Source: an uncultured virus (IMG/VR IMGVR_UViG_2667528152_000001) | Taxonomy: Duplodnaviria > Heunggongvirae > Uroviricota > Caudoviricetes | Length of the DNA stretch: 64,000 nt | Reading direction: 5' to 3' (one strand) | IMG/VR virus record: IMGVR_UViG_2667528152_000001 | Shown: positions 3,454 to 61,633 of the stretch, piece by piece | Layout of the letters: each line of letters starts with the position of its first letter | How positions within the stretch are numbered: the first letter of the stretch is position 1 | Program-made: the position numbers and the translations under genes | Notes under the pieces: model-generated | Seen by the model: only the letters and a program-made list of their open reading frames with translations | Database searches by the model: none | Told to the model about the DNA's origin: nothing

Positions 3454-3482
3454 TTGACTTTATATAGTACATGTATTATAAT
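3454..3482 (+). promoter_or_regulatory. SigA promoter of the small-peptide cassette
   Basis: TTGACT-17bp-TATAAT, with a tacatgta palindrome in the spacer. Confidence 0.75.
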
Positions 3483-3504
3483 TATATATAGAAAGGAGGA
3501 AGAT

Positions 3505-3630
3505 ATGAGAATATCAGAAATTGCTGATTTGCTTACTTCAATCGGAACTCTGTTGGTTGGTATAGCAAGCATAATCACAGCAATAAAAAAAGAACCTAAA
3601 AAGAAAAACCGGCCACGGAGATTCAAATAA
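3505..3630 (+). CDS. 41-aa hydrophobic peptide with basic tail (type I toxin-like)
   Basis: MRISEIADLLTSIGTLLVGIASIITAIKKEPKKKNRPRRFK; strong SD aaaggagg. Confidence 0.7.
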   Translation: MRISEIADLLTSIGTLLVGIASIITAIKKEPKKKNRPRRFK

Positions 3631-3698
3631 GGTTCTAGTAGTAGTTTGGGGCTCAAGCCCCTTGCCACTACTGATAGTATATCATATCTAAGACAAAT

Positions 3699-3764
3699 AT
3701 GAAATATTTGATTATTTTCGCAATTTGTTTAGTTGTATTTTACTTTATTAACAAGGATGATTGA
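3699..3764 (+). CDS. 21-aa hydrophobic peptide
   Basis: MKYLIIFAICLVVFYFINKDD; weak SD; stop abuts the next ATG. Confidence 0.45.
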   Translation: MKYLIIFAICLVVFYFINKDD

Positions 3765-3765
3765 A

Positions 3766-3936
3766 ATGGATAAAGAATTAACACCTCAAGAAAAAGCAAA
3801 TAAAAAGTGGGCAGAAAACAATAGAGAACATAGAACCTATCTATCAAAACGATCTACTGCTCGTAGTTTTATTAACAAAAATGCTACAAAAGAAGACTTA
3901 TTAGAATTAAAACAATTAATTGAAAGCAAACTCTAG
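3766..3936 (+). CDS. 56-aa helical, probably DNA-binding protein
   Basis: MDKELTPQEKANKKWAENNREHRTYLSKRSTARSFINKNATKEDLLELKQLIESKL; followed by hairpin aaccgc...gcggtt. Confidence 0.7.
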   Translation: MDKELTPQEKANKKWAENNREHRTYLSKRSTARSFINKNATKEDLLELKQLIESKL

Positions 3937-3976
3937 ACACACAAAAAAACCGCCCTCAATAGAGAGCGGTTAATAT

Positions 3977-4177
3977 TTATTTCAGTTTTTCTTTGACAGC
4001 ATCTACTGCCTCTTCAACAGCATCTTTAGCATCATCTGCTAGTTCTTTGCCTTTAGCAATTGTTTTTTCGACAAATCCTTTTGCTTCTAACTCTTTATCA
4101 CCGGTTATTTTGCCAAAGCCTTCTTTAAGACTGCCTGACGCTTGTTCAACTTTTGCTTTTAGTTTTTCTTGTGACAT
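3977..4177 (-). CDS. CsbD-family protein
   Basis: [28 protein letters not shown] motif. Confidence 0.85.
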
Positions 4178-4286
4178 AATGTGGCTCCTTATTATTTTTA
4201 TTCTATGGTAACATTTTGATTATTTCTAGGCAAATAAAAAAGCAAGAACCGCTAGTGTCAGGCGATTCTTGCTAAATAATATGCAC

Positions 4287-4586
4287 CTATACTGTAATCT
4301 GCCTACTTACTTCAAAACTAAATCGTTGTTTTATTAAATCATTTATTTGTTTTGTTGAATTTACAATTTTTAGTTGACTTTTAATATGATTAAAATCATA
4401 GTAAGACAATAAATTGATAAAAGCAGAGTTTACAAAGGACGAACTTACTTCGCTAATTCCTGCGAACGAAACAGTCACGACTGTGTCTGTATAAAAATAA
4501 GATTTCAATTGTTCAAATAAAATCTCTCCCGCCTTGTTATCGTTAGAAAAATTCTTTGCTAGTTCTTTGACAGTTAACGTTACCAT
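4287..4586 (-). CDS. STAS-like (DUF4325-type) protein
   Basis: GEILFEQL...VTVSFAGISEVSSSFVNSAF pattern; overlaps the upstream ATPase gene. Confidence 0.75.
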   Translation of the reverse strand: MVTLTVKELAKNFSNDNKAGEILFEQLKSYFYTDTVVTVSFAGISEVSSSFVNSAFINLLSYYDFNHIKSQLKIVNSTKQINDLIKQRFSFEVSRQITV

Positions 4587-5485
4587 TCGAATTCTTCCTC
4601 CTCTTCTAAATCATATAAATTGTCATTCGATACATCTATTCGAATTTCAAAAAAAGTACCAGGATATGATTCCTCAGACGAATAACTTTGAGTAATTTTA
4701 TTATCTGATACCGAGACTATACCACAATTAGATATAATTGTAAAGTTCCCGACCTTGTTAGTAGTTAAAGTATTTACAATATTAGAAAGCCCTGCCCCTC
4801 TATTTTGAGGTATAGTTTCTGCAGAAACACCCTCTTGAAGAGCGAATTCTATTAACTTGTTGTCAGGCTCATCCTTTTTAAATTTTCGCTTTATAGACTG
4901 AGGGATTCCTATTCCGAAATCAGATACTGCTATTACAATCTCCTTGTTCTTGGGATAGTATTGCCCAAAAATACATCCCTTAGATTCCTTAGAATGATCT
5001 GCAATATTATTAAAAATTTCGTCAACCGCTACACAAATAGAACTAAACTCATTTGTTCTGCCAGTTTGCTTTTGTAACCAATTCTTAAAGTCTGTTACCT
5101 TCCATTGAGCTATTTGTTCAGTGTTAATAAATTTAATTTCAAAAGTAGTCGGGCGCAGTTCCGGCTCTTTATAAACCAATTTATCAAACACTTTAAAAAA
5201 GCCACAATCTACTAGATACAACATAGCTTGCCTTTGACGTTTATTTAAAGAGCTTTCTTCGCATATTAACCACTTGATGTTTGCATCTTTTCTTTTTGTA
5301 GCAAAAGTTAACATATTATATAACGAAATTACTCCACTAGGTTCCGCAAACTCAATGTTTCTCATATCTACTGTAAGTGTCCTGTTATCACTTAAAGCAA
5401 GTAATCTATTGAAATTGGTAACGATTTTCGTAATGTTATATTTGTTTAAATTCTGAGGAAGAACTAGATTATTCATTGATAACAA
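4580..5485 (-). CDS. STAS plus GHKL (histidine-kinase-like) ATPase
   Basis: N-box EIFNNIADHS, G1 DFGIGIP, G2 RGAGLS and GTFFEI; N-terminal VDMRNIEFAEPSG STAS-like strand. Confidence 0.8.
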   Translation of the reverse strand: MLSMNNLVLPQNLNKYNITKIVTNFNRLLALSDNRTLTVDMRNIEFAEPSGVISLYNMLTFATKRKDANIKWLICEESSLNKRQRQAMLYLVDCGFFKVFDKLVYKEPELRPTTFEIKFINTEQIAQWKVTDFKNWLQKQTGRTNEFSSICVAVDEIFNNIADHSKESKGCIFGQYYPKNKEIVIAVSDFGIGIPQSIKRKFKKDEPDNKLIEFALQEGVSAETIPQNRGAGLSNIVNTLTTNKVGNFTIISNCGIVSVSDNKITQSYSSEESYPGTFFEIRIDVSNDNLYDLEEEEEFEW

Positions 5486-27871: not shown

Positions 27872-27980
27872 TTTCCATCACCTCCTCCGTTTTTAAAAAA
27901 ATAAGTATTTTATGCGTATTTTACTTGACAAACATGTCTTTTATGTGTATAATATAAGTATAGAAAGTGAGGTAAGCAAT

Positions 27981-28166
27981 ATGCCAATGACCCCTAAGCA
28001 AATGATTAAATTGCTTAAAAAGAACGGGTTTTATGAAATTAGTCAAAACGGTAGTCATAAAAAACTTCGTGATGACTTAGGACACCAAACAATCGTTCCA
28101 ATGCACAATAAAGACCTTGGCAAGGGTCTTGAAGATACCATCTTAAAACAAGCGGGTTTGAAATAA
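27981..28166 (+). CDS. hicA: HicA toxin
   Basis: MIKLLKKNGF...NGSHKKL...TIVPMH..DLGKG...ILKQAGL; TTGACA-17-TATAAT at 27925-27953. Confidence 0.92.
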   Translation: MPMTPKQMIKLLKKNGFYEISQNGSHKKLRDDLGHQTIVPMHNKDLGKGLEDTILKQAGLK

Positions 28167-28218
28167 TCCGCTTAACAAGATGGCTTGCTTATCTCACAAT
28201 AATCAAAGGAGAATTATT

Positions 28219-28596
28219 ATGTTAGTTTATCCAGCTATATTCACACAAGACTCAGATTATATCATGGTTACATTTCCAGATGTCCCTGAAGCAATCACTC
28301 AAGGTGAAGGCTTTCAAGAAGCTTACGAAATGGCTGTCGAAGTCTTAGGTTTTGCCCTTGAAGATTATACTGACTATCCAAAGGCGAGCTCCGTTTCTGA
28401 TTTAAAAGAACAGTATCCTGGTTCTGATATTGCTTTAATTGGCATTGATATGATTGCCTACATGAAAAAATATCACTCTAAGAAGGTACGCAAAAACGTG
28501 ACTATTCCTGAATGGTTGAACAACGCAGCCGAAGATAAAAATCTCAACTTTTCCCAAGTACTTACTGAAGCACTTGAATTAAAATTACAAGCATAA
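28219..28596 (+). CDS. hicB: HicB antitoxin
   Basis: YPAIF...VTFPDVPEAITQG and C-terminal RHH VRKNVTIPEWL...NFSQVL. Confidence 0.92.
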   Translation: MLVYPAIFTQDSDYIMVTFPDVPEAITQGEGFQEAYEMAVEVLGFALEDYTDYPKASSVSDLKEQYPGSDIALIGIDMIAYMKKYHSKKVRKNVTIPEWLNNAAEDKNLNFSQVLTEALELKLQA

Positions 28597-28943: not shown

Positions 28944-29015
28944 CACAAAAACGGTTATAACTCCACTCCATGTCCCACGCCTGCTGTATTGCTCTAGTGG
29001 CTGAAATAACCACTA

Positions 29016-30979: not shown

Positions 30980-30994
30980 AGAAAGAGAGGAAAA

Positions 30995-35056: not shown

Positions 35057-35144
35057 ATCTGTCGGTACATTACTACTGGCAGATTTTCTATTTTACGGGG
35101 TGGCTCAATCAGCTACCCCTATTTTTTATGAAAGGATTGATTAC

Positions 35145-37968: not shown

Positions 37969-37970
37969 AT

Positions 37971-40148: not shown

Positions 40149-41146
40149 AGTTGAAAACTTTAGTGATTGGTGGTTCTGGATTATTCTTGATGGTCTTCTC
40201 ACTGCTTCTGTTTGTTGCCATTTTATTTTCAGATGAACAGGACAGCGGAATTTCCAATATTCATTATGGAGGTGTGAATGTTTCCGCAGAAGTGCTGGCT
40301 CATAAGCCTATGGTAGAAAAATATGCCAAAGAATATGGCGTTGAAGAATATGTCAACATACTTCTTGCGATTATACAGGTGGAATCGGGCGGTACTGCGG
40401 AAGATGTTATGCAGTCCTCGGAATCCCTCGGTCTTCCACCTAATTCATTGAGTACAGAAGAATCCATTAAGCAAGGTGTGAAGTATTTCAGTGAATTATT
40501 AGCCAGTAGCGAAAGGCTCAGTGTAGATTTAGAATCGGTTATCCAGTCCTACAATTATGGTGGTGGTTTCTTAGGGTATGTGGCTAATCGTGGAAATAAA
40601 TATACCTTTGAACTGGCTCAAAGTTTCTCAAAAGAGTATTCAGGTGGCGAAAAAGTGTCTTACCCCAATCCCATAGCCATACCTATCAATGGGGGCTGGC
40701 GATACAACTATGGCAATATGTTTTATGTGCAACTGGTAACGCAGTATCTTGTCACAACAGAGTTTGATGATGATACGGTACAAGCCATCATGGACGAAGC
40801 ACTGAAATATGAGGGCTGGCGATACGTTTACGGTGGAGCTTCCCCGACTACTTCTTTTGATTGTAGCGGACTGACACAATGGACGTATGGAAAAGCTGGA
40901 ATTAACTTACCACGAACCGCACAACAGCAATATGATGTGACCCAGCATATCCCACTATCGGAAGCACAAGCTGGCGATTTGGTTTTCTTTCATTCTACCT
41001 ATAACGCTGGCTCTTATATTACTCATGTTGGGATATACCTTGGCAATAACCGTATGTTTCATGCAGGCGACCCAATCGGTTATGCCGACTTAACAAGCCC
41101 CTACTGGCAACAGCATTTAGTGGGAGCAGGACGAATCAAACAATGA
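40145..41146 (+). CDS. orf14: Tn916 Orf14 lysozyme/NlpC-P60 hydrolase
   Basis: QVESGG, DVMQSSES and FDCSGL. Confidence 0.95.
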   Translation: MKLKTLVIGGSGLFLMVFSLLLFVAILFSDEQDSGISNIHYGGVNVSAEVLAHKPMVEKYAKEYGVEEYVNILLAIIQVESGGTAEDVMQSSESLGLPPNSLSTEESIKQGVKYFSELLASSERLSVDLESVIQSYNYGGGFLGYVANRGNKYTFELAQSFSKEYSGGEKVSYPNPIAIPINGGWRYNYGNMFYVQLVTQYLVTTEFDDDTVQAIMDEALKYEGWRYVYGGASPTTSFDCSGLTQWTYGKAGINLPRTAQQQYDVTQHIPLSEAQAGDLVFFHSTYNAGSYITHVGIYLGNNRMFHAGDPIGYADLTSPYWQQHLVGAGRIKQ

Positions 41147-42075
41147 GAAAGGAAGATTTAATGATGAAATTTAGAAAAAATCAGAATAAAGAAAAACAGA
41201 TACCAAAGGAAAAGAAACCTCGTGTCTATAAGGTCAATCCTCATAAAAAGGTTGTGATTGCCTTGTGGGTACTTTTAGGGCTTAGTTTCAGCTTTGCGAT
41301 ATTCAAGCACTTTACAGCTATAGATACTCATACTATTCACGAAACAACTATCATAGAAAAGGAATACGTTGATACTCATCATGTAGAAAATTTTGTAGAG
41401 AACTTTGCGAAAGTCTACTATTCATGGGAGCAATCCGATAAGTCCATTGATAATCGAATGGAAAGTCTAAAAGGCTATCTGACAGATGAACTTCAAGCTC
41501 TCAATGTTGATACAGTACGCAAAGATATTCCTGTATCGTCTTCTGTAAGAGGATTTCAGATATGGACGGTAGAGCCAACTGGCGACAATGAGTTTAATGT
41601 AACCTACAGTGTAGACCAGCTCATTACAGAGGGAGAAAATACAAAGACCGTCCACTCTGCTTATATAGTGAGTGTCTATGTAGATGGTTCTGGAAATATG
41701 GTACTGGTTAAGAATCCGACCATTACCAACATACCTAAGAAATCAAGTTATAAACCAAAAGCCATTGAAAGTGAGGGGACGGTTGATTCCATTACAACCA
41801 ATGAAATCAATGAGTTTTTAACGACGTTCTTCAAGCTCTATCCTACAGCGACAGCCAGTGAACTTTCCTACTATGTGAATGACGGGATATTAAAACCAAT
41901 CGGAAAAGAGTACATCTTTCAAGAACTGGTAAATCCTATTCACAATCGTAAGGATAATCAAGTCACGGTATCGCTGACAGTGGAGTATATCGACCAGCAG
42001 ACCAAAGCAACGCAGGTATCTCAATTTGATTTGGTACTTGAAAAGAACGGGAGTAATTGGAAGATTGTAAAATAA
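41143..42075 (+). CDS. orf13: Tn916 Orf13 (TcpC-like)
   Basis: Single TM segment; position before tet(M). Confidence 0.93.
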   Translation: MRKEDLMMKFRKNQNKEKQIPKEKKPRVYKVNPHKKVVIALWVLLGLSFSFAIFKHFTAIDTHTIHETTIIEKEYVDTHHVENFVENFAKVYYSWEQSDKSIDNRMESLKGYLTDELQALNVDTVRKDIPVSSSVRGFQIWTVEPTGDNEFNVTYSVDQLITEGENTKTVHSAYIVSVYVDGSGNMVLVKNPTITNIPKKSSYKPKAIESEGTVDSITTNEINEFLTTFFKLYPTATASELSYYVNDGILKPIGKEYIFQELVNPIHNRKDNQVTVSLTVEYIDQQTKATQVSQFDLVLEKNGSNWKIVK

Positions 42076-42349
42076 CAAATATTGGTACATGATTACAGAT
42101 ACTTTGTAATCATGTACTCTTTTTGATAAAAAATTGGAGATTCCTTTACAAATATGCTCTTACGTGCTATTATTTAAGTGACTATTTAAAAGGAGTTAAT
42201 AAATATGCGGCAAGGTATTCTTAAATAAACTGTCAATTTGATAGCGGGAACAAATAATTAGATGTCCTTTTTTAGGAGGGCTTAGTTTTTTGTACCCAGT
42301 TTAAGAATACCTTTATCATGTGATTCTAAAGTATCCAGAGAATATCTGT

Positions 42350-42436
42350 ATGCTTTGTATACCTATGGTTATGCATAAAAATCCCAGTGATAAAAGTATT
42401 TATCACTGGGATTTTTATGCCCTTTTGGGTTTTTGA
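42350..42436 (+). CDS. orf12: tet(M) leader peptide Orf12 with attenuator
   Basis: MLCIPMVMHKNPSDKSIYHWDFYALLGF; long hairpin gcataaaaatcccagtgataaa/tttatcactgggatttttatgc. Confidence 0.9.
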   Translation: MLCIPMVMHKNPSDKSIYHWDFYALLGF

Positions 42437-42451
42437 ATGGAGGAAAATCAC

Positions 42452-44371
42452 ATGAAAATTATTAATATTGGAGTTTTAGCTCATGTTGATGCAGGAAAAA
42501 CTACCTTAACAGAAAGCTTATTATATAACAGTGGAGCGATTACAGAATTAGGAAGCGTGGACAAAGGTACAACGAGGACGGATAATACGCTTTTAGAACG
42601 TCAGAGAGGAATTACAATTCAGACAGGAATAACCTCTTTTCAGTGGGAAAATACGAAGGTGAACATCATAGACACGCCAGGACATATGGATTTCTTAGCA
42701 GAAGTATATCGTTCATTATCAGTTTTAGATGGGGCAATTCTACTGATTTCTGCAAAAGATGGCGTACAAGCACAAACTCGTATATTATTTCATGCACTTA
42801 GGAAAATGGGGATTCCCACAATCTTTTTTATCAATAAGATTGACCAAAATGGAATTGATTTATCAACGGTTTATCAGGATATTAAAGAGAAACTTTCTGC
42901 CGAAATTGTAATCAAACAGAAGGTAGAACTGTATCCTAATATGTGTGTGACGAACTTTACCGAATCTGAACAATGGGATACGGTAATAGAGGGAAACGAT
43001 GACCTTTTAGAGAAATATATGTCCGGTAAATCATTAGAAGCATTGGAACTCGAACAAGAGGAAAGCATAAGATTTCATAATTGTTCCCTGTTCCCTGTTT
43101 ATCACGGAAGTGCAAAAAACAATATAGGGATTGATAACCTTATAGAAGTGATTACGAATAAATTTTATTCATCAACACATCGAGGTCCGTCTGAACTTTG
43201 CGGAAATGTTTTCAAAATTGAATATACAAAAAAAAGACAACGTCTTGCATATATACGCCTTTATAGTGGAGTACTACATTTACGAGATTCGGTTAGAGTA
43301 TCAGAAAAAGAAAAAATAAAAGTTACAGAAATGTATACTTCAATAAATGGTGAATTATGTAAGATTGATAGAGCTTATTCTGGAGAAATTGTTATTTTGC
43401 AAAATGAGTTTTTGAAGTTAAATAGTGTTCTTGGAGATACAAAACTATTGCCACAGAGAAAAAAGATTGAAAATCCGCACCCTCTACTACAAACAACTGT
43501 TGAACCGAGTAAACCTGAACAGAGAGAAATGTTGCTTGATGCCCTTTTGGAAATCTCAGATAGTGATCCGCTTCTACGATATTACGTGGATTCTACGACA
43601 CATGAAATTATACTTTCTTTCTTAGGGAAAGTACAAATGGAAGTGATTAGTGCACTGTTGCAAGAAAAGTATCATGTGGAGATAGAACTAAAAGAGCCTA
43701 CAGTCATTTATATGGAGAGACCGTTAAAAAATGCAGAATATACCATTCACATCGAAGTGCCGCCAAATCCTTTCTGGGCTTCCATTGGTTTATCTGTATC
43801 ACCGCTTCCGTTGGGAAGTGGAATGCAGTATGAGAGCTCGGTTTCTCTTGGATACTTAAATCAATCATTTCAAAATGCAGTTATGGAAGGGATACGCTAT
43901 GGTTGCGAACAAGGATTATATGGTTGGAATGTGACGGATTGTAAAATCTGTTTTAAGTATGGCTTATACTATAGCCCTGTTAGTACCCCAGCAGATTTTC
44001 GGATGCTTGCTCCTATTGTATTGGAACAAGTCTTAAAAAAAGCTGGAACAGAATTGTTAGAGCCATATCTTAGTTTTAAAATTTATGCGCCACAGGAATA
44101 TCTTTCACGAGCATACAACGATGCTCCTAAATATTGTGCGAACATCGTAGACACTCAATTGAAAAATAATGAGGTCATTCTTAGTGGAGAAATCCCTGCT
44201 CGGTGTATTCAAGAATATCGTAGTGATTTAACTTTCTTTACAAATGGACGTAGTGTTTGTTTAACAGAGTTAAAAGGGTACCATGTTACTACCGGTGAAC
44301 CTGTTTGCCAGCCCCGTCGTCCAAATAGTCGGATAGATAAAGTACGATATATGTTCAATAAAATAACTTAG
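42452..44371 (+). CDS. tet(M): Tetracycline ribosomal protection protein, 639 aa
   Basis: [26 protein letters not shown] and [12 protein letters not shown]. Confidence 0.99.
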
Positions 44372-44468
44372 TGTATTTTATGTTGTTATATAAATATGGT
44401 TTCTTGTTAAATAAGATGAAATATTTTTTAATAAAGATTTGAATTAAAGTGTAAAGGAGGAGATAGTT

Positions 44469-44657
44469 ATTATAAACTACAAGTGGATATTGTGTCCTGT
44501 ATGTGGAAATAAAACACGATTAAAGATAAGGGAAGATACTGAATTAAAAAAATTCCCCCTCTATTGTCCGAAATGCAGACAAGAAAATTTAATTGAAATA
44601 AAGCAGTTCAAAGTAACTGTGATTACAGAGCCAGACGCAAAGACGCAGAGCCGATAA
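44469..44657 (+). CDS. orf6: Tn916 Orf6 cysteine-rich KTR protein
   Basis: CPVCGNKTR...YCPKC; ATT start after SD. Confidence 0.75.
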   Translation: MINYKWILCPVCGNKTRLKIREDTELKKFPLYCPKCRQENLIEIKQFKVTVITEPDAKTQSR

Positions 44658-44716
44658 AATGAGATTAATACAATCTCATTTTATCGGCTCTTTCCGTTAT
44701 GTATGGATTCTTTTAA

Positions 44717-45070
44717 TTAGTCTTCGATGTTTCTTGCTTCGTTGATACCGCTGGCTAAAGATTCCATTAAGGATAGTTCTTTGTCTGTAAAGCTATCCAT
44801 GTATTTCTCTATCTGTAATCGTCGGGTGCTTTTTACCAAGTTATTAGCAGGTAAGAAAAATTCATCAACGGAAACATGAAGTAACGATACAAGGTCATAA
44901 AGAACTTGTATGCTGGGGTGTTGCCCTTTATTTTCAATATTAGTTAAGTACCGTGGGTCAATTTCAATCAATGCTCCCACTTGTTCACGAGTTAAACCTC
45001 GTTTCAATCGAGCTTCTTTAATGGCTAAACCAAAGGCTCTAAAATCATATTTATCTTCTTTTTTACGCAT
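44717..45070 (-). CDS. orf9: Tn916 Orf9 HTH repressor
   Basis: XRE HTH. Confidence 0.93.
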
Positions 45071-45574
45071 AGTAGACCACCTCTATACATTTTATTGTTC
45101 CTACTGAATTAAAAACAGGTATAGAAAAACGTGTTATATGGTTTATAGGTTTATATTTAATAAAAAGCACTACTAAACGCCAATAAAAAAAACCGTTATA
45201 TGGTAGTGCTATTTACGCTGTTAAAATATTGTATATTACTTCCAAATGGCGGTTTGTTGGAGGTCAACGTCGCCATGAAGTACATCATATACAATAAATT
45301 TCCTTACATTGGGTTCTTGTCAAAAAAAGTCGTCTATCTGCAATAGATAAGTACGTCCACCAATGTGGTTTTATAAATCATATAGATAGAATAACAGAAG
45401 CATGTAAACAGAGAAATAAATCTGTTTATATGCTTTTTTGGCTATTCAGAACTTTTTTACAAAGTTTATTTATCAGTAATGCAACAAATCCCCCTTTCAC
45501 ATTGGGACTAAGAGTGAAAGGAGATAAACGAGCAAGGCTCACTTCCTTTCCTAGACAGAAAGGGGGTGAGAAAC

Positions 45575-45997
45575 ATGAAACCATCTTCTTTTCAGACCAC
45601 AATAGAAAATCAGTTTGACTATATCTGTAAACGTGCTATGGAAGACGAGCGAAAGAATTATATGCTTTATCTTTCAAGGATTGCAAAGCGTGAGGTGTCC
45701 TTTTCGGATGTTGGCGATTATCTTGTTAGCCAGTTTGCGACAACAGATAACTATTCAACTGACTTTCAGATTTTTACACTCAATGGGTTATCAGTAGGCG
45801 TTGAAAATGATTTGTTGAGTGAAGCATTACGTGAGTTGCCAGACAAGAAACGTGAAATTCTACTGCTGTTTTACTTTATGGACATGAGCGATTCAGAAAT
45901 TGCAGACCTGTTGAAATTGAACCGTTCTACTGTCTATCGGCATAGAACCAGTGGACTAGCCTTAATTAAAAAGTTTATGGAGGAATTTGAAGAATGA
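45575..45997 (+). CDS. orf7: Tn916 Orf7 sigma-region-4-like regulator
   Basis: MSDSEIADLLKLNRSTVYRH. Confidence 0.93.
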   Translation: MKPSSFQTTIENQFDYICKRAMEDERKNYMLYLSRIAKREVSFSDVGDYLVSQFATTDNYSTDFQIFTLNGLSVGVENDLLSEALRELPDKKREILLLFYFMDMSDSEIADLLKLNRSTVYRHRTSGLALIKKFMEEFEE

Positions 45998-46224
45998 AAA
46001 CACAATATCCTATGATTCCCTTTCCTCTCATTGTAAAGGCAACAGATGGCGATACCGAAGCGATTAACCAGATTCTACATCATTACAGAGGGTACATAAC
46101 GAAGCGTTCCCTACGACTTATGAAAGATGAATATGGCAATCAAAGTATGGTCGTTGATGAAGTCTTACGTGGAAGAATGGAAACCAGACTGATTACAAAG
46201 ATTTTGTCATTTGAAATTAAGTAA
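45994..46224 (+). CDS. orf8: Tn916 Orf8
   Basis: IVKATDGDTEAINQILHHY. Confidence 0.92.
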   Translation: MKTQYPMIPFPLIVKATDGDTEAINQILHHYRGYITKRSLRLMKDEYGNQSMVVDEVLRGRMETRLITKILSFEIK

Positions 46225-46684
46225 TATCCTCTCTCCTTTCGTGGAAGCGTGCTAAACCATTCCACGCTTCCCGAACAGGGAGGTTTGTTATTCCACCAAA
46301 GCATATTGAGCTTTCAATGTGTTTTGATAGGCTAACGAGCCATTGTTCTTTGAAAACTGAATAAAAGTAATCGAATACGTTTCGATAAGAAAAGAGCCAA
46401 CGGAACTAACCGCCATGACCTATCTTATAAAGATAGCGAGCGATTCATGTTAGTGATCCGAGAAGCAATCTTTAGCAGGATTGCCTGCAACGACATTCTT
46501 ATCGTGATAATGATACTCCCATACAGTCAATAGTCCGAGCGTGATAAAACCGTCGCAGGCAATGAGTATGGCTACATGAGAACCATGCAGGGGTGGAACT
46601 CCCGTGAGCTTTGCTAAAGCTGTTCGATTGCTGGTAAAACAACTTTTATGAAATCCAAATAAGTGATTTGGAAAGGAGGATTTT

Positions 46685-46888
46685 ATGAAGCAGACTGACA
46701 TTCCTATTTGGGAACGTTATACCCTAACCATTGAAGAAGCGTCAAAATATTTTCGTATTGGCGAAAACAAGCTACGACGCTTGGCAGAGGAAAATAAAAA
46801 TGCAAATTGGCTGATTATGAATGGCAATCGTATTCAGATTAAACGAAAACAATTTGAAAAAATTATAGATACATTGGACGCAATCTAG
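46685..46888 (+). CDS. xis: Tn916 excisionase
   Basis: [31 protein letters not shown]. Confidence 0.97.
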
Positions 46889-46969
46889 CGTCGCCAAAGG
46901 GTCTTGTATATGATAAAATAGTATTAAGTCGTATCAAGGCTCTTTCCATAAAGGAAAGGAGCAAATGCC

Positions 46970-48187
46970 ATGTCAGAAAAAAGACGTGACAATAAAGGTC
47001 GAATCTTAAAGACTGGAGAGAGCCAACGAAAAGACGGAAGATACTTATACAAATATATAGATTCATTTGGAGAACCGCAATTTGTTTACTCGTGGAAACT
47101 TGTGGCTACAGACCGAGTACCAGCAGGAAAGCGTGATTGTATCTCACTTAGAGAGAAAATCGCAGAGTTACAGAAAGACATTCATGATGGTATTGATGTT
47201 GTAGGAAAGAAAATGACACTCTGCCAGCTTTACGCAAAACAGAACGCTCAAAGACCAAAGGTTAGAAAAAACACTGAAACTGGACGCAAATATCTTATGG
47301 ATATTTTGAAGAAAGACAAGTTAGGTGTAAGAAGTATTGACAGTATTAAGCCATCAGACGCTAAAGAATGGGCTATTAGAATGAGTGAAAATGGTTATGC
47401 TTATCAAACCATCAATAACTACAAACGTTCTTTAAAGGCTTCATTCTATATTGCTATACAAGATGATTGTGTTCGGAAGAATCCATTTGACTTTCAACTG
47501 AAAGCAGTTCTTGATGATGATACTGTCCCTAAGACCGTACTAACAGAAGAACAGGAAGAAAAACTGTTAGCCTTTGCAAAAGCTGATAAAACCTACAGCA
47601 AAAATTATGATGAAATTCTGATACTCTTAAAAACAGGTCTTCGTATTTCAGAGTTTGGTGGTTTGACACTTCCAGATTTAGATTTTGAGAATCGTCTTGT
47701 CAATATAGACCATCAGCTATTGAGAGATACTGAAATTGGGTACTACATTGAAACACCAAAGACCAAAAGTGGCGAACGTCAAGTTCCTATGGTTGAAGAA
47801 GCCTATCAAGCATTTAAGCGAGTGTTAGCGAATCGAAAGAATGATAAGCGTGTTGAGATTGATGGATATAGTGATTTCCTCTTTCTTAATAGAAAGAACT
47901 ATCCAAAAGTGGCAAGTGATTACAACGGCATGATGAAAGGTCTTGTTAAGAAATACAATAAGTATAACGAGGATAAATTGCCACACATCACTCCACATAG
48001 TTTGCGACATACATTCTGTACCAACTATGCAAATGCAGGAATGAATCCAAAGGCATTACAGTACATTATGGGACATGCTAATATAGCCATGACGCTGAAC
48101 TATTACGCACATGCAACATTCGATTCTGCAATGGCAGAAATGAAACGCTTGAATAAAGAGAAGCAACAGGAGCGTCTTGTTGCTTAG
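46970..48187 (+). CDS. int: Tn916 integrase
   Basis: MSEKRRDNKGRILKTGESQRKDGRY, TGLRISE, HSLRHT and GHANIAMTLNYY. Confidence 0.98.
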   Translation: MSEKRRDNKGRILKTGESQRKDGRYLYKYIDSFGEPQFVYSWKLVATDRVPAGKRDCISLREKIAELQKDIHDGIDVVGKKMTLCQLYAKQNAQRPKVRKNTETGRKYLMDILKKDKLGVRSIDSIKPSDAKEWAIRMSENGYAYQTINNYKRSLKASFYIAIQDDCVRKNPFDFQLKAVLDDDTVPKTVLTEEQEEKLLAFAKADKTYSKNYDEILILLKTGLRISEFGGLTLPDLDFENRLVNIDHQLLRDTEIGYYIETPKTKSGERQVPMVEEAYQAFKRVLANRKNDKRVEIDGYSDFLFLNRKNYPKVASDYNGMMKGLVKKYNKYNEDKLPHITPHSLRHTFCTNYANAGMNPKALQYIMGHANIAMTLNYYAHATFDSAMAEMKRLNKEKQQERLVA

Positions 48188-52856: not shown

Positions 52857-53699
52857 TCAGAACCTCTTACTTTCTGCATTATCTGGATATTTAAAAATAT
52901 TGTTTTTTGCACCTTTGATTATGCGATCGACAAAAGCAGCATCGTAGATTTTCATAAGCTCAGCTCTACTAAAATTTGTATTAATGATAGTATTTGTCCG
53001 ATTATCCAAAATATTAAATAAAAACGTATATGTCCAACCGCTAGCAGATTTAATGGTGTTACCTGTGGTTGACTCCTTGCCTAAGTCATCAAGTATCAGA
53101 TAATCACAATTGATGAGAAGCTTTGACATTCTTTCTTGCGAATATTTGCTATTTTTTTTATCGTCATAATCGAATGTATCTTTGACTAGTCCGGACAACA
53201 AAGGTACCGAAACAAATATCACACTCTTTGATTGATTGTAAGATTTAAACATCTCGTTAATATTTTTAGCAATACTCATAGACAAGTGGCTCTTGCCAAC
53301 CCCTGGAGGTCCTTGTAAGAGGGAGTTACCTTCCATTCCTTTAACATAATCTCTGGTGATTCGTTTGGCATAGTTTAGCGCTTTTGTATCTACAGCACTA
53401 TGTTCCTTGTAGTTTTTCAACGTAGCACTAGCAATTTCCTTTGATAAAACGCTCTCTTTATAAAACACTTTATAACCCTTAGCTAGCAACGACTGGTTGT
53501 TGTACGCAATGTCAACCGCATTACTTTTCGTTTGGATATACTCTGTTGTACATTGCCAACAAAATTCTGTTTCTCTATTGCCATGATTTGGCATTTTCCT
53601 AGCATAAATTGGCATCTCGTGCTTTTCGCATATTTTCCCAGTATCTCTAATAATGCCATTCTCGAGCATGCTCTCTCTTGTCATTAACCCAAAAGCCAT
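52857..53699 (-). CDS. DnaC/IstB-like helicase loader ATPase
   Basis: CEKH/CWQC zinc motif, GPPGVGKS, LILDDLG and TIINTN. Confidence 0.9.
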   Translation of the reverse strand: MAFGLMTRESMLENGIIRDTGKICEKHEMPIYARKMPNHGNRETEFCWQCTTEYIQTKSNAVDIAYNNQSLLAKGYKVFYKESVLSKEIASATLKNYKEHSAVDTKALNYAKRITRDYVKGMEGNSLLQGPPGVGKSHLSMSIAKNINEMFKSYNQSKSVIFVSVPLLSGLVKDTFDYDDKKNSKYSQERMSKLLINCDYLILDDLGKESTTGNTIKSASGWTYTFLFNILDNRTNTIINTNFSRAELMKIYDAAFVDRIIKGAKNNIFKYPDNAESKRF

Positions 53700-53708
53700 A
53701 GATACCTC

Positions 53709-54623
53709 CTAAAATCCATATTTCGGATCTGGTTTCTTAAGCTCATCTAACTCAGCTTGCGAAAATCGTTGGCCTTGTTGCTTCTGGTAATAATCACTTT
53801 TAGCAACTTCTGGCTGATTGAGATAGCTCTCAAACTTGCTAGCATTAAACAAGGTTGATGGCCTGAGATATTTTTCCATGTCAGAATTTACCCACTCGCT
53901 GCATTTTTTATCTATGACAGCTTTGAAATCTTCTAAAGTATAACTATCTTTTAGTCTCGCTTTGACTAAATCTGTGTTTGTTTTTACAAACTTATAGTTA
54001 GAGTTCATTTTTTGGTTGAGATAAGCTATTGGGATACGATAATCAAAATTTTTGGGATTACCTTTTTTGACTTGTTCGACATATTTCTCTTCTAACCAGT
54101 CTGGAAAGAGATATTCAGTCGGGCTCTGCTCGACAATATATTCTTTCTCTTTATCTAACTCTCTCTCTTTATCTTTCTTTTTCTCTATATCTATCTCTAT
54201 CTCTGTTGGACATTGGTTGGACATTGGTTGGACATCGGTTGGAATTTGTCCAATTTTTCTAGTTTCTCGTTTATATTTTGCCCAGTTCGTCTCGCTTTCC
54301 AGCATAGCTTTAGCTTGGGGCATTTGTGCGTTACCGCTACCGTCTATCTGGATTAGACCGCATTTTGTGAAGTAAGCTAATGTCATATTGATATCGTCTT
54401 CAGACACCTCTAACTTGATGGCAAGCTCTTCTACCAAATTATCAAAGTATCCTTCGTAATATAAAATGCAGTCTGTTTCTAAACTTTCTAGCATCAAACG
54501 AATATACAAGACTGTCATAGTGTCTCCGCCAGCCATCTTTTTTAAACGTTTGATAAAAATATTTTCAAAAAACTTCTTGTCGAACTTTAGCCAAAAGTAG
54601 ATTTTAGTTTTTTCTTTACCCAA
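53709..54623 (-). CDS. Phage replisome organizer/initiator
   Basis: YFWLKFDKKFF N-terminus and YLRPSTLFNASKFESYLNQ C-terminus. Confidence 0.9.
   Translation of the reverse strand: MGKEKTKIYFWLKFDKKFFENIFIKRLKKMAGGDTMTVLYIRLMLESLETDCILYYEGYFDNLVEELAIKLEVSEDDINMTLAYFTKCGLIQIDGSGNAQMPQAKAMLESETNWAKYKRETRKIGQIPTDVQPMSNQCPTEIEIDIEKKKDKERELDKEKEYIVEQSPTEYLFPDWLEEKYVEQVKKGNPKNFDYRIPIAYLNQKMNSNYKFVKTNTDLVKARLKDSYTLEDFKAVIDKKCSEWVNSDMEKYLRPSTLFNASKFESYLNQPEVAKSDYYQKQQGQRFSQAELDELKKPDPKYGF
54204..54253. repeat. Iteron-like repeats (probable phage ori) inside the initiator gene
   Basis: Tandem gttggacattg-like repeats ending in an inverted tgtccaa, next to a purine/pyrimidine-skewed tract. Confidence 0.7.
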
Positions 54624-55620: not shown

Positions 55621-55698
55621 TTGCTAGCCTGTAGGAGCTATGTTATAATCGAAGTACACGAAACCACCGAGGGCTTTCGCCCTCTGGTTTCGTTGCTT

Positions 55699-55806: not shown

Positions 55807-55856
55807 AGCTCCGTTTCCTTTCCGTTGGATTTAGTTAATTCCTTAACCATGATTTA

Positions 55857-58118: not shown

Positions 58119-59038
58119 AAGACTTCTCCTTCTAAAATTTCAGTGTTCTTACGCTTCATATCAAGGTCATTAAAGAGCTTTAGACCTCTATCGACCAAGC
58201 TATCGAACTCTTGCTTAATAAGCCCGTCACGCTGGATATAGTGCGTTTCATCAGCATAGATAAGTCCGCTCATTTCAAGTAATAGCAAATCGCCTTTTTT
58301 GAGTAGTTCAGTGATATTCTTGTATGATGCAATCTTCTTTTGATAGCTATTGAGTTTACCTTCTGACTGTTTAATCGCTTCTGTTAGCTCATCATACTTA
58401 GCTGATTTATGATTGACCTCATCACGCTTAGCATAGAATTCTTTAAGTTGACTTTTTAAATACTCCTCGTGCTGCAAGGCATCATCAACCATCTTACTTA
58501 GTTCTTTATTCTTGCCAAGCAAAGTCTGATTAAGTTGCTTAGTGCTTTCATAATCATCTGGAATAACTTCTTTGATAACTTCTTTTTCAACGATTTTAGC
58601 ACTCAAGGCTTGCTCTGCTAAATTCTCTTTTTGTTGCTCTAAACGGGCATTTTCTGATTTTAAGCGGTTGTTTTCTCGCTTGATTTCTTGCAACTCTCTG
58701 ACAGTTGGGTTATCGCCACTTTCAATCCGTTCAATCTGTTCCTGCTTTTGCTCGTCTGGTAGGGTGGCTATGAGGTAGAGGGCTGACATCCCTAAATCGT
58801 TCAACGTTGAACGATTTGAAGTTAGTTCTTCTGCAATTGCCATCATTTTTCTAGCGCTACTTGGTTCAATCCTAATACTGTCTAACCATTTTTCAAATTG
58901 TCCATGAGATAAATCATTTTCTTTTACATGCTTTATCCTCATTCCTATTTCAAAAATTGATTGTCCTGCAAGTCTTTTAAAGCCGATTATCTCGCTTGAT
59001 ATAACTTGCAAATCATTTGATAATGCTGGTTCCTTCAT
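58115..59038 (-). CDS. DUF3102-domain protein
   Basis: AGQSIFEIGMRIKHVKENDLSHGQFEKWL and PTVRELQE. Confidence 0.8.
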   Translation of the reverse strand: MKEPALSNDLQVISSEIIGFKRLAGQSIFEIGMRIKHVKENDLSHGQFEKWLDSIRIEPSSARKMMAIAEELTSNRSTLNDLGMSALYLIATLPDEQKQEQIERIESGDNPTVRELQEIKRENNRLKSENARLEQQKENLAEQALSAKIVEKEVIKEVIPDDYESTKQLNQTLLGKNKELSKMVDDALQHEEYLKSQLKEFYAKRDEVNHKSAKYDELTEAIKQSEGKLNSYQKKIASYKNITELLKKGDLLLLEMSGLIYADETHYIQRDGLIKQEFDSLVDRGLKLFNDLDMKRKNTEILEGEVL

Positions 59039-59077
59039 GTCGTCCTTTCTAGTATTGTGTTATTTTTGTCAACTTTT

Positions 59078-59284
59078 CTATGAAATTAAAATGGCTTCTA
59101 GGACTTTTCCGGGGTCTACCCCTAAAATATCCGCTAGCATTGCCACTTCTGACGCATCAAATGATTTTTTTGGTTTTTTACGTTTCTGATAAAATCCAGA
59201 GCGTGTAAAACCCATTTTAGTCGCGATAACTTTCTTTTTAATTCCGCTATCATCAATCAATTGCTCGAAAGCATTTTCCTGCAT
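59078..59284 (-). CDS. Cro/Mor-like HTH protein
   Basis: SGIKKKVIATKMGFTRSGFYQK...F...E...LADILGV. Confidence 0.8.
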   Translation of the reverse strand: MQENAFEQLIDDSGIKKKVIATKMGFTRSGFYQKRKKPKKSFDASEVAMLADILGVDPGKVLEAILIS

Positions 59285-59353
59285 TCCCCCACCCCCTTTC
59301 TATCTGTTTTTAGTACCTCTAATCTGCTATAATGTGAGCAGAAAGGAGGTGAA

Positions 59354-59527
59354 TGTAAAGATATTACTTTCTATTTTTTCGATGGCGTAACAACAACTGG
59401 TTACTTATATCTTCAAAGTCTTAAAGATAATAATTTTTCGAGCCGTTTAAAGAATGTCCTTAAAGAAGAAGGTATCCCTCTTACACCAACTTCTATCACA
59501 AGGACTATCGCCAAACTAACCTTGTGA
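59354..59527 (+). pseudogene. C-terminal remnant of a DUF2513-like moron
   Basis: GVTTTGYLYLQSLKDNNFSSRLK has no in-frame start behind the promoter and SD. Confidence 0.4.
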
Positions 59528-59725
59528 TTTTGTAAAACTCTTGGCAATTATGGAAAGTGTTACTTCAACATAGCCATCGCCAAGGGTTTTTGTCTTTACA
59601 GAATCTTCAATAACATAATGAATCCTTTTATCATCTATCAAGAAATGATTATCGGTTTCAATGATGTTATGAAGCTTCGGCGCTGGATAGTTTTTTTGGC
59701 TATACGGATATTTTTTGGGGCGCAT
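59516..59725 (-). CDS. Small phage protein
   Basis: MRPKKYPYS N-terminus. Confidence 0.6.
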   Translation of the reverse strand: MRPKKYPYSQKNYPAPKLHNIIETDNHFLIDDKRIHYVIEDSVKTKTLGDGYVEVTLSIIAKSFTKSQG

Positions 59726-59779
59726 CTATTCCACCTTCTTTCTGTGGTATAATTTAAATAAAAATTGTGAGGTATTATT

Positions 59780-60475
59780 ATGAGTAAAAAATCTTGTTTC
59801 GTAGTATCTGCTATCGGTGAGGAAAGTAGCGAAATTCGGAACCACTCAGACAGTGTTTTAAATTATATAATTAAACCTGCATTGATCGAAAAGTATCAAG
59901 TGACCAGAGCTGACGAACTGTATCATTCAGATAGGATTGACGATAAAATATTTGATGCTTTATCCACAGCAGACTTGGTAATTGTTGATATAACAGGAAA
60001 TAACCCGAATGTCTTTTTAGAACTTGGGTTTAGAAAAGCGTTGAACTTACCTACTATTTTCCTTAGACAAAAGACTGATGAAGATATCCCTTTTGATATT
60101 AGAACTATAAATACCATTCATTACGATCTCAAAAACTCTGAAAGTAAGGTTGTGCTTGATTCTGTCCAAGAAACAATTAGACGAATTCAAAAAACAGAAG
60201 AAAACATTGATTTTTCTATAATCCATGAACCAAACGACCAAAGTGCTTCAGTGCAAGATATTATCCAATTAAAAACTTCAATTAACAACATCTATGATGC
60301 AATTGAAAATTTATCTGATAAAATAGAAAATAATTCTACTCAAAAAAGACCAATGACTCAGGAAGACTTAATTATGATGGCTTTTCAAGAGCCAGAAAAG
60401 TTAGAAAAGATTTTTGAGTTACAAACAAAATACCCTAATGCCTTTAACAGCCCTTCGAACGCTCTAAACGACTAA
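59780..60475 (+). CDS. Nucleoside 2-deoxyribosyltransferase/TIR-like fold protein
   Basis: CFVVSAIG, RADE, ADLVIVDITGNNPNVFLELG and IPFDI; own TGgTATAAT promoter. Confidence 0.8.
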   Translation: MSKKSCFVVSAIGEESSEIRNHSDSVLNYIIKPALIEKYQVTRADELYHSDRIDDKIFDALSTADLVIVDITGNNPNVFLELGFRKALNLPTIFLRQKTDEDIPFDIRTINTIHYDLKNSESKVVLDSVQETIRRIQKTEENIDFSIIHEPNDQSASVQDIIQLKTSINNIYDAIENLSDKIENNSTQKRPMTQEDLIMMAFQEPEKLEKIFELQTKYPNAFNSPSNALND

Positions 60476-60621
60476 TTCGCTCCTCAAGGCCTTTGATATA
60501 ACCTCTTAAGAATGAGATTGAGGTTGTATTTTCTTCTTCGTTCTGTTCTATTTTTTGAACTTTTTCTTCAAGATTAATCATTTTTCTGACCCCTCTCCTT
60601 TCCACTCCCACTTGGGAGTTT

Positions 60622-60780
60622 TTATTTTGTAATAAACCAAGCGATCAGCCAAGTGATACCACCTAGCACTAACAGTGCTGGCAATACGCCACCTTCAAAT
60701 TCAATACTTGTTTTTTCTTTGCCATTACGACTAGTAAACGTGTGTTCTAGATCGCCAAACATTAGTTTTTTCCAATTCAT
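60622..60780 (-). CDS. Small membrane phage protein
   Basis: MNWKKLMFG...GGVLPALLVLGGITWLIAWFITK. Confidence 0.6.
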   Translation of the reverse strand: MNWKKLMFGDLEHTFTSRNGKEKTSIEFEGGVLPALLVLGGITWLIAWFITK

Positions 60781-60837
60781 TTTGTACCTCCTAAAAATGT
60801 TATAATCAACTTATCCTAGCAGAAAGGAGGATAAGCT

Positions 60838-61020
60838 ATGTATTTTGTGATTAGAAAATCTTCTAATAACCAGTTTTATTTTGTAATAAAAGCTGATAAT
60901 CATGAAGTTGTGGCAACTAGTGAGACTTACTATTTTAAAGATTCTGCCATTCGAACAATAAAATCTATTAAAAAAGGTATCTCTACTGACTCTAATGTCG
61001 TTGATATGACAAGCGATTAA
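60838..61020 (+). CDS. YegP/DUF1508-family protein
   Basis: FYFVIKADNHEVVATSETY...IKSIK. Confidence 0.85.
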   Translation: MYFVIRKSSNNQFYFVIKADNHEVVATSETYYFKDSAIRTIKSIKKGISTDSNVVDMTSD

Positions 61021-61139
61021 ACAAACTTGTTAATTCAGCAGAACACTCAAGTAAGATGGCTTTATTAAACTCTGGGTCGCTATTTGCTTCTTGGAGTTTT
61101 TTTATAATGTTTTCTAATTCCTCCATACAATTCCTTTCC

Positions 61140-61283
61140 TCATAGAAGTTCATTTCTTGGGTGGAACTCTTTTGTTTCCACCAGCTGAATACCATCCACC
61201 GTGATAATAATCTTGCTATGTAAACATGTCTTCGCTAGAAATTTTGAACCAGCTTCTAGTTGTTTGATTAAATCCTCTGGCAT
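61140..61283 (-). CDS. Small phage protein, 47 aa
   Basis: MPEDLIKQLEAGSKFL...IIITVDGIQLVETKEF; SD aaaggag. Confidence 0.6.
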   Translation of the reverse strand: MPEDLIKQLEAGSKFLAKTCLHSKIIITVDGIQLVETKEFHPRNELL

Positions 61284-61373
61284 AATCTCTCCTTTCATTC
61301 TTGCAGAGATACAGCCGATGTGCTAAACTAAACTTACCCCGTTAGGGGTGGGGGAATTTCACCCCCTATCCGA

Positions 61374-61475
61374 TTACCTCGTAATCAGATATTTGATTTT
61401 GAGCTTAAACCAAAGAATCTTGATTTCGACTTCTAGTTCTTTGTGTTTAGGCTTTTTGTTTAGCCTAGATTTCAT
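61374..61475 (-). CDS. 33-aa leader peptide, first ORF of the lytic operon
   Basis: MKSRLNKKPKHKELEVEIKILWFKLKIKYLITR; SD aaaggaggt. Confidence 0.65.
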   Translation of the reverse strand: MKSRLNKKPKHKELEVEIKILWFKLKIKYLITR

Positions 61476-61521
61476 CAGCTGTACCTCCTTTCGTTTTGCT
61501 TAATTCCTTAAGCTTGATTAT

Positions 61522-61633
61522 AGTTTAACATCGTGTTTCCTTTTTGTCAACTATTTTGTGTTAAAAAAGTCAACTTTTTTGAATTTGATTTTTTGCCATT
61601 TTTGTTGACATTTTGTAAACATGTAATTATAAT
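61522..61633. promoter_or_regulatory. Genetic switch: divergent promoters plus three operators
   Basis: Minus strand TTGACA-17-TAAACT (61522-61550); plus strand TTGACA-17-TATAAT (61605-61633); 17-bp operators at 61535, 61558 and 61604. Confidence 0.8.

Follow-up and report, generated by a model that had tools for sequence, protein, structure and literature searches.

In the hok/sok system and in par/Fst of pAD1, a long-range 5'-3' helix or a 5' structure hides the ribosome-binding site of the toxin, and a convergent small RNA (sRNA) is made. RNase III plays a role in the type I toxin-antitoxin loci of Bacillus subtilis prophages, and the immI region of P22 has a layout in which arc-ant is accompanied by the sar antisense RNA. 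Among the B. subtilis loci, txpA/RatA, bsrG/SR4 and yonT-yoyJ/SR6 associate a small prophage peptide gene with a convergent antisense RNA overlapping its 3' part, and yonT/yoyJ carries two tandem small open reading frames (ORFs) on one mRNA, as described in PMC5848175. The stretch analysed here, 64,000 nucleotides of an uncultured virus (IMG/VR IMGVR_UViG_2667528152_000001), which we call the window, contains three loci built on a similar plan. The reading we favour, with slightly more than even confidence, is that they are type I toxin-antitoxin-like cassettes in which, in the lysogen, a fold-back of the sense RNA and an antisense RNA together prevent the synthesis of a small and probably harmful peptide; as part of it, the three loci are best read as one loosely related family of streptococcal-prophage cassettes.

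An earlier note on the window had described at each locus a consensus SigA (sigma-A) promoter, a basic peptide of 33-41 amino acids (aa), a GC-rich hairpin, a reverse-complement copy of the peptide's start region 50-60 nt after the stop codon and, abutting this copy, an extended -10 on the opposite strand, and had likened the whole to type I toxin-antitoxin loci. All the elements it listed are in place, and the likeness is apt. The sense promoters agree with the consensus at 11 of 12 positions at locus 1 (TTGACT-17-TATAAT, 3454-3482, plus strand), at 12 of 12 at locus 2 (55885-55857, minus strand) and at 10 of 12, with a TG, at locus 3 (61550-61522, minus strand). The ORFs encode 41, 35 and 33 aa (3505-3630, 55806-55699 and 61475-61374), GC-rich hairpins follow (3637-3672; 55693-55658, with a GAAA loop and terminator-like on the plus strand too; region 61366-61336), and the start-region copies lie 52, 57 and 54 nt after the stop (8 nt at 3682-3689, 9 nt at 55642-55634 and 16 bp with G-U pairs at 61320-61305). 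The opposite-strand promoters are TTCATA-16-TGaTATACT (3676-3703, -10 at 3684-3676, minus strand, 9/12 with TG), TTGCTA-17-TGtTATAAT (55621-55649, TGtTATAAT at 55641-55649, plus strand, 10/12 with TG) and TTGCAG-17-TGcTAAACT (61301-61336, -10 at 61321-61329, plus strand); the last, at 8/12, was missed by the promoter scan of the window. All three extended -10s are conserved in diverged relatives. At every locus the TG of the antisense -10 is the complement of the start codon's complement, and since it is built in this way, one and the same DNA segment serves as the 3' strand of the fold-back and as the antisense promoter. Each of the three sense RNAs has minimum-energy and centroid folds closed by this fold-back; the z-scores are -9.68 (locus 3), -8.31 (locus 2) and -5.32 (locus 1), and 0 of 200 shuffled sequences folded as well.

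Compared with the B. subtilis loci, the present ones show no sequence membership and the locus-3 peptide is not hydrophobic; the antisense RNA predicted at loci 2 and 3 covers nearly the whole ORF, and co-directional regulator genes come after the cassette. The pairing geometry differs from that of hok/sok and par/Fst, where Sok and RNA II pair at the 5' region; in contrast to both, no Fst/Ldr-type peptide is present and the 3' helix strand also serves as antisense promoter. The literature searched gave no description of the cassette. The known type I toxin families (Fst/Ldr, TxpA and others) gave 0 sequence matches in Pfam and NCBIfam, searches for homologous proteins returned only unnamed or near-identical "hypothetical" clusters, and Rfam gave no match at gathering score in the three loci, the best permissive matches being far below threshold; the earlier opinion that this is not a named system stands to the extent that no toxin family, Rfam family or named system fits. 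Part of the system is already catalogued, as the unannotated sRNAs SP119_SR069 and SP119_SR070, listed as "IG sRNA" for the locus-3 type, and as the aca13 locus, the last gene of locus 1 being an Aca13 homologue.

For the locus-3 type, both RNA 5' ends and the antisense 3' end are established in Streptococcus pyogenes. In the supplementary tables of the differential RNA sequencing (dRNA-seq) study of strain S119 (PMC6431027), the start pyotss0486 of SP119_SR069, an "IG sRNA" in a prophage, has 264 reads with tobacco acid pyrophosphatase (TAP) and 108 without (false discovery rate 0.02). The string upstream of it matches the locus 3 antisense promoter (-10 tgctaaact, -35 ttgcgg, spacing 17), so that this start corresponds to position 61336 of the window, exactly the antisense start that had been predicted there. 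SP119_SR069 is 137 nt long in these tables, and its listed terminator consists of ORF-internal sequence and a U-run. The homologous sense start of locus 3 is pyotss0487 of SP119_SR070, supported by 173 reads with TAP against 4 in its absence, and the RNA occurs as species of 50 and 304 nt. No terminator is predicted at the end of the 50-nt species (1058769), which lies 4 nt from the antisense 3' end (1058773), and this proximity suggests that the two RNAs interact in the cell. SP119_SR069 and SP119_SR070 are direct homologues of the locus 3 antisense and sense RNAs, respectively, and agree with them in their promoter strings and in lying in a prophage; the tables give them no more than the label "IG sRNA" and note no ORF, fold-back or function. 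The strings of loci 1 and 2 were not found in the PMC6431027 tables. The dRNA-seq tables of Streptococcus agalactiae strain NEM316 (PMC4448216) contain no searched string at a homologous locus, the single match being an unrelated promoter, and this strain provides no test. Three raw RNA runs carrying the species label contain 0 reads of 3380-3990, which indicates that the strains of those runs lack locus 1; an RNA-library contig (2165 nt, depth 799) spans the locus 1 stretch, and does not show strand and ends.

The locus 3 cassette occupies about 245 nt (61305-61550). Its sense RNA starts at 61515 on the minus strand and opens with a GGAA-loop hairpin (61498-61513) whose 6 pairs are invariant in 28 distinct rows of the alignment. 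According to the fold and the alignment, the fold-back joins a 5' strand at 61488-61473, with an extension at 61468-61458, to 3' strands at 61320-61305 and 61333-61323 that the antisense promoter overlaps, giving a 16-bp helix and an 11-bp extension. Three 3' hairpins are folded at 61390-61368 (across the stop codon), 61366-61350 and 61349-61336. The predicted antisense sRNA, homologous to SP119_SR069, would run for about 125 nt on the plus strand (61336-61460; z -5.9) to the counterpart of the SP119_SR069 terminator, with a stem at 61403-61452 inside the ORF and a U-run at 61453-61465 that is the complement of Lys codons. The ORF itself belongs to phrog_31919 and is unannotated in the related phage Javan52.

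An IMG/VR motif scan with the 5'-hairpin sequence returned at least 118 loci; among the matches listed, 45 of 118 carry the cassette and 7 more have the promoter and 5' end only, which with the window makes 46 locus-3-type sequences, 32 of them unique. In the phage collection 93 records match locus 3, all from Streptococcus. Conservation runs from the transcription start to the Shine-Dalgarno (SD) sequence of the next gene. Palindromes in the promoter spacers vary, as do the genes downstream; these bounds between variable flanks make locus 3 a discrete module. The structure was counted on a MAFFT alignment of 31 sequences (28 distinct) over 42 pairs: 97.9% of the cells are paired, a share that falls to 27-54% on sliding the 3' partner, and the covariation score of 0.079 exceeds the shuffled value of 0.062 and is reached by 0 of 500 shuffles. 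Among the 16 fold-back pairs, 2 are invariant, 9 show a one-sided change that keeps pairing, 1 a two-sided change, and the remaining 4 break only in two rows that MAFFT has mis-registered (L074, L097). These two and L046 and L092 keep the helix with altered letters, at -18 to -21 kcal/mol. Between two locus-3 variants, the hairpin across the stop codon has been swapped wholesale, together with a different peptide C-terminus.

The same scan shows the 5' part in other company. Four phages (L034, L044, L102, L107) have the same promoter, 5' hairpin and SD followed by a 65-71-aa ORF in place of the cassette, and more widely an operator-bearing promoter and GGAA-loop hairpin stand ahead of a 65-91-aa ORF with no cassette (including L272:2668-2747); one such site lies beside the repressor gene of the pneumococcal phage phiARI0031. 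From these cassette-free occurrences, the 5' hairpin is a separate, widely shared leader element.

At locus 2 (minus strand), the palindrome TGTTTAAACA is present in two copies at the promoter (55901-55892 and 55877-55868), the 5' hairpin with GGAA loop (55833-55848) is common to locus 3, and the fold places the 5' strand of the fold-back at 55812-55798, opposite 3' segments (55655-55650 and 55642-55634) that the antisense promoter overlaps. The antisense RNA is predicted to start near 55656 on the plus strand and to end near 55700 or 55790. A second ORF of 27 aa, hydrophobic and recognised from the reading frame and its selection, follows at 55620-55537, then a small ribbon-helix-helix-like repressor gene (55536-55357; phrog_876, E 4.4e-15) and an antirepressor (55210-54740; phrog_847, E 3.2e-50). 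Three variants of the locus are available (window type, Javan616 and MissE1), and 15 further IMG/VR loci added no new one. In MissE1, both partners are altered in two fold-back pairs, with the ATG start codon becoming GTG, and TGnTATAAT is kept on the opposite strand in all three variants. The operator-like repeats flanking the -35 vary between cassette variants (L257, L259), and such variation would fit autoregulation by the downstream ribbon-helix-helix protein. As in P22 immI, locus 2 heads an operon of a small ribbon-helix-helix-like repressor and an antirepressor and has a small antisense RNA promoter; unlike in immI, this promoter is sited 5' of the repressor gene and directed away from the antirepressor, an orientation in which its RNA cannot pair with the antirepressor ribosome-binding site, as a sar-type RNA would.

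Locus 1 (plus strand) carries an 18-bp near-palindrome (16/18) between the -35 and -10 of its promoter (3463-3480), which is a perfect 20-bp palindrome in the relative L220. Its first ORF (phrog_3399) encodes a hydrophobic core and a Lys/Arg tail, the weak fold-back pairs 3501-3508, over the SD and start, with 3682-3689, within the antisense promoter, and the lower stem of its GC-rich hairpin covaries among relatives. The antisense RNA is predicted to run from about 3669 down to about 3590 on the minus strand. A 21-aa hydrophobic peptide (ORF2, 3699-3764) comes next, and the locus ends with a stand-alone Aca13 homologue of 56 aa (3766-3936; phrog_2277) that matches residues 90-140 of chain B of Protein Data Bank entry 8ye6 ("A32", AcrIIA32) with E 2.4e-17. 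According to PMC12282945, this part of AcrIIA32 is Aca13, a repressor without a helix-turn-helix (HTH) that binds inverted repeats located in acr promoters between the -35 and the -10; of the four residues reported there as essential, W99, R107 and S111 are kept and K92 is Q. Of the DNA-binding proteins announced downstream of two of the cassettes, the one at locus 1 is thus this Aca13 homologue, and the one at locus 2 is assigned by PHROG match only. In five diverged locus 1 variants the antisense -10 is kept and ORF2 is conserved as a protein. Two other identities were considered for this locus and rejected. For a phage-encoded guide RNA, there is no tracrRNA-like match and no resemblance to the element presented in bioRxiv 2026.06.01.729453; as for the TxpA-like protein reported for group B Streptococcus (PMC2887945), the strain 2603V/R protein is a different peptide from ORF1.

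Locus 1 resembles the acr-aca13 operons described in PMC8934645 and PMC12282945 by its Aca13 match, by the inverted repeat between -35 and -10, here a candidate operator, and by its place past the lysin at the prophage end. These likenesses suggest that the peptides, standing in the "acr" or first early-operon position, act on host defence or on a superinfecting phage, the lock then preventing harm in the lysogen. We consider this very improbable: known Acr proteins do not resemble peptides that have hydrophobic cores and a length of 21-41 aa, and neither the ORF1 nor the ORF2 peptide has a match in the supplement of PMC12282945. In contrast to the acr-aca13 operons, the genes ahead of aca13 here encode two tiny hydrophobic peptides, separated by an antisense promoter, and no recognisable Acr.

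The three loci had been thought to share their architecture with unrelated sequence, and this was wrong. A 5' hairpin directly following the -10 is common to loci 2 and 3. Loci 1 and 2 have a common GC hairpin and adjoining -10 block, in which Javan110 and MissE1 agree at 17 of 21 aligned positions. Locus 3 in turn has an antisense-promoter block in common with a pneumococcal-type group of five loci (group C). This group has the same 5' hairpin as loci 2 and 3, a 37-aa peptide with a basic head and a hydrophobic tail, a GNRA-capped hairpin and a second, hydrophobic ORF of 27 aa. Its fold-back is a perfect 11-bp helix (-22 kcal/mol, with 0 of 500 shuffles as good), it has the antisense TGCTAAACT, and its promoters stand back to back with a repressor gene, as do the locus-3-type promoters. 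The antisense -35, spacing and TGn-10 are kept in group C as well as in three diverged locus-3 variants and in all three locus-2 variants. At each locus the Lys-rich tract of the first peptide is the complement of the U-run in the real or predicted antisense terminator, which explains why all the first peptides are basic.

Could these elements be ordinary and separate features, namely small phage genes and bidirectional terminator hairpins, with -10-like hexamers and complementarities arising as by-products of AT-rich sequence and of strong SD-start sequences and no common mechanism? When the start strand was paired as a bare duplex and compared with 500 shuffles of the 3' region, locus 3 (-26.9 kcal/mol) was reached by 0 shuffles and locus 2 (-16.2 kcal/mol) by 10. 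The fold-back of locus 3 is clearly non-random, that of locus 2 needs comparative evidence and that of locus 1 is not above chance, a result which agrees with the ordinary-feature explanation. Promoter-like sites are only about 1.5-2 times as frequent as the shuffled expectation in the three stretches. The window has 91 ORFs of 20-60 aa preceded by an SD, of which 7 reach a duplex energy of -14 kcal/mol or better; four unrelated ORFs attain the energy of locus 2, and the antisense motif accompanies only loci 3 (-26.9) and 2 (-16.2) among these 7. Against such a collection of by-products stand the antisense RNA mapped at the homologous site in the PMC6431027 tables, the survival of the antisense promoters through sequence change and an indel, the fold z-scores of -8 to -10 at loci 2 and 3 and the sequence blocks common to the loci, and we regard it as improbable. 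Structure hiding the SD in the mRNA is found at loci 2 and 3, and weakly at locus 1; the fold-back put forward in the earlier note is supported by moderate covariation at locus 3 and by the two MissE1 pairs at locus 2, and is weak at locus 1, where it is invariant and at chance level.

All the small ORFs show coding-type selection, judged by the ratio of nonsynonymous to synonymous polymorphism (pN/pS), which ranges from 0.08 to 0.46, and with 21-41 aa their products stay below the size of about 60 aa that marks type I toxins. The ratio of the locus-3-type ORF is 0.25 in frame against 1.75 and 2.48 off-frame, for 18 unique 33-codon ORFs; five unique sequences, three with a 2-nt deletion and two with a 32-codon ORF, were left out of this set. 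Locus-1 ORF1 gives 0.11-0.22, locus-1 ORF2 0.41 against 0.92 and 1.27 off-frame, the group C ORFs 0.08 (ORF1) and 0.25 (ORF2), and locus-2 ORF1 0.46 against 1.5 and 1.15 off-frame, from three sequences only. The anatomy of the cassettes, its conservation and this coding-type selection are shown. Hydrophobic cores of 16-19 uncharged residues are present in locus-1 ORF1 (19 residues) and ORF2, in locus-2 ORF2 and in both group C peptides, and locus-2 ORF1 is borderline as a hydrophobic membrane-type toxin.

Several of our results weigh against the toxin-antitoxin-like reading. The locus-3 peptide is far from hydrophobic (best 15-aa hydropathy mean 0.91, longest uncharged run 4 residues), a 2-nt deletion rewrites its C-terminus in 3 of the 32 unique locus-3-type sequences, and no peptide of the three loci matches a Pfam or NCBIfam family, Pfam having been searched to E 10. 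The antisense RNA is mapped through the S. pyogenes homologue for the locus-3 type, and for loci 1 and 2 it is predicted from conserved promoters. The sequences of the locus 3 family are close (85% mean column identity), which makes the covariation moderate rather than strong; the compensatory changes of locus 2 come from one phage, MissE1; four unrelated ORFs of the window (-15 to -17.4 kcal/mol) equal the duplex energy of this locus; and at locus 1, the bare duplex (-9.2 kcal/mol) is matched or beaten by 215 of 500 shuffles, and the fold-back strands (7-8 bp) are invariant in the five variants and therefore cannot covary. Finally, an exhaustive search (PMC2887945) gave 0 type I loci for strain A909, in which locus 1 is present.

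The toxin-antitoxin-like model would work as follows. A strong sigma-A promoter with operator-like palindromes would drive the sense RNA, which at loci 2 and 3 would open with a protective 5' hairpin and which would encode the basic peptide of 33-41 aa; loci 1 and 2 would add to it a hydrophobic one of 21-27 aa. The SD and start codon of the first ORF would pair with the segment just 3' of the GC hairpin, so that the finished RNA would be closed and poorly translatable. Read on the opposite strand, the same 3' segment would act as the extended -10 promoter of a convergent small RNA that would cover the hairpins and part or most of the ORF and end at a terminator whose U-run is complementary to Lys codons. 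In the lysogen, the antisense RNA would pair with the sense RNA, probably followed by cleavage by RNase III, and pairing and fold-back together would block peptide synthesis. A burst of sense transcription at infection or induction would override this lock, and the peptides would then be released as membrane-active or otherwise harmful payloads.

The position of the cassettes raises the alternative that they mainly gate the genes that follow, namely the early genes, the ribbon-helix-helix gene with the antirepressor and aca13, the ORFs being leader peptides of a post-transcriptional second lock. Each of the three cassettes is preceded by an operator-bearing promoter and followed by co-directional genes, and no further promoter intervenes; the SD of the next gene belongs to the conserved locus-3 block, the locus-3-type and group C promoters are back to back with the repressor gene, and no minus-strand terminator is predicted in 58900-61300, so read-through from locus 3 into the early genes would be possible. 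The phages L034, L044, L102 and L107, with promoter and 5' hairpin and no cassette, also speak for a leader function, as does the sense promoter, active in the S. pyogenes lysogen according to the PMC6431027 tables, yet giving a 50-nt species that ends opposite the antisense 3' end. However, conservative replacements and low pN/pS extend along the whole peptides, beyond the need of a mere leader, and the downstream SD lies outside the antisense RNA. The control of the lytic operon once proposed for locus 3 is unsupported, as the genes 3' of locus-3-type cassettes encode small proteins (41-59 aa) of no recognisable function, which are not known switch regulators, and in the window convergent genes come next; a Cro-like regulator as the first of these genes was rejected, since the 41-59-aa proteins have no such features. 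A cassette acting chiefly as a leader is in our opinion unlikely, and gating of downstream genes (the Aca13 homologue, the ribbon-helix-helix gene and antirepressor, the small early genes) in addition to the toxin-antitoxin-like function is possible but less likely.

A wider form of the toxin-antitoxin-like model can be put forward tentatively, as a possibility that we judge less probable than its negation. The peptide ORF, the 5'-3' lock and the convergent sRNA, whose promoter is made from the complement of the ORF's start region, would constitute a mobile, exchangeable RNA cassette placed directly behind promoters that are under repressor control in streptococcal prophages. Its sites are of three kinds, one next to the cI-type repressor, one preceding the antirepressor operon and one within the aca13 operon. 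The cassette would be a general second lock, in which the resident antisense RNA would destroy leaky transcripts and the peptides would be a harmful or anti-host payload released only by a transcription burst. Since phages that differ in their operators conserve the cassette, the early transcripts of a heteroimmune phage entering the cell could be silenced by it as well, which would amount to an RNA-based cross-immunity.

Among streptococci, prophages of groups A and B and of the pneumococcal type are carriers of toxin and virulence genes, and little is known of how their lysis-lysogeny decision is controlled. A conserved sense/antisense peptide cassette beside the repressor gene, before the antirepressor operon and within the anti-CRISPR-associated operon would bring control at the RNA level to these switches, would give a function to SP119_SR069 and SP119_SR070, which are so far only catalogued, and would supply several small proteins absent from annotation. 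It would also be a compact natural design, with a translational lock and an antisense promoter in one DNA segment. Other very short prophage sRNAs of strain S119 in the PMC6431027 tables, SR068 (45 nt), SR080 (30 nt) and SR081 (36 nt), have extended -10 promoters and are hardly longer than a terminator hairpin; further cassettes of this kind may have them as antisense partners.

A Streptococcus agalactiae-type prophage fills the window on the minus strand, its closest records being Javan52 and the phiGBSVK phages. Locus 3 is back to back with a LexA-like (cI-type) repressor gene (61667-62416, plus strand), the replication genes lie at 52857-54623, the genes from terminase to lysin extend from 27706 down to 5700, and locus 1 is at the far end. 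A 202-aa ORF (62367-62975, plus strand) that overlaps the end of the repressor gene and has a RelA_SpoT nucleotidyltransferase domain may be a toxin or defence gene of the small alarmone-synthetase type in the lysogeny module; a P63C-domain ORF comes after it. The prophage is split at about 30.6-48.2 kb by a Tn916-type conjugative element (30665-48187), inserted between the terminase side and the DUF1642 gene. This element includes two DUF961 genes, FtsK-like, Rep_trans and AAA_10 proteins, a lysozyme/NlpC-P60 protein, TcpC, a Tet(M)-like GTPase of the EF-G family (42437-44371) and a Tn916-type integrase (46970-48187), and Rfam matches inside it are sRNA_0030, SQ2397 and pemK RNA. A HicA/HicB toxin-antitoxin pair (27912-28596, plus strand) is found beside the small terminase gene, and between this pair and the conjugative element lies a tRNA-like gene (29015-29095, minus strand; Rfam tRNA, 43.9 bits) whose anticodon was left unassigned by ARAGORN. 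Between the lysin and locus 1, a moron-like pair (4287-5485, minus strand) encodes a HATPase_c-like protein of 301 aa and an overlapping STAS-like DUF4325 protein of 99 aa. Outside locus 1, a truncated tyrosine-integrase ORF (2490-3071, plus strand) and an insertion sequence-type HTH transposase ORF (1784-2188, minus strand) suggest a decayed element at the prophage border.

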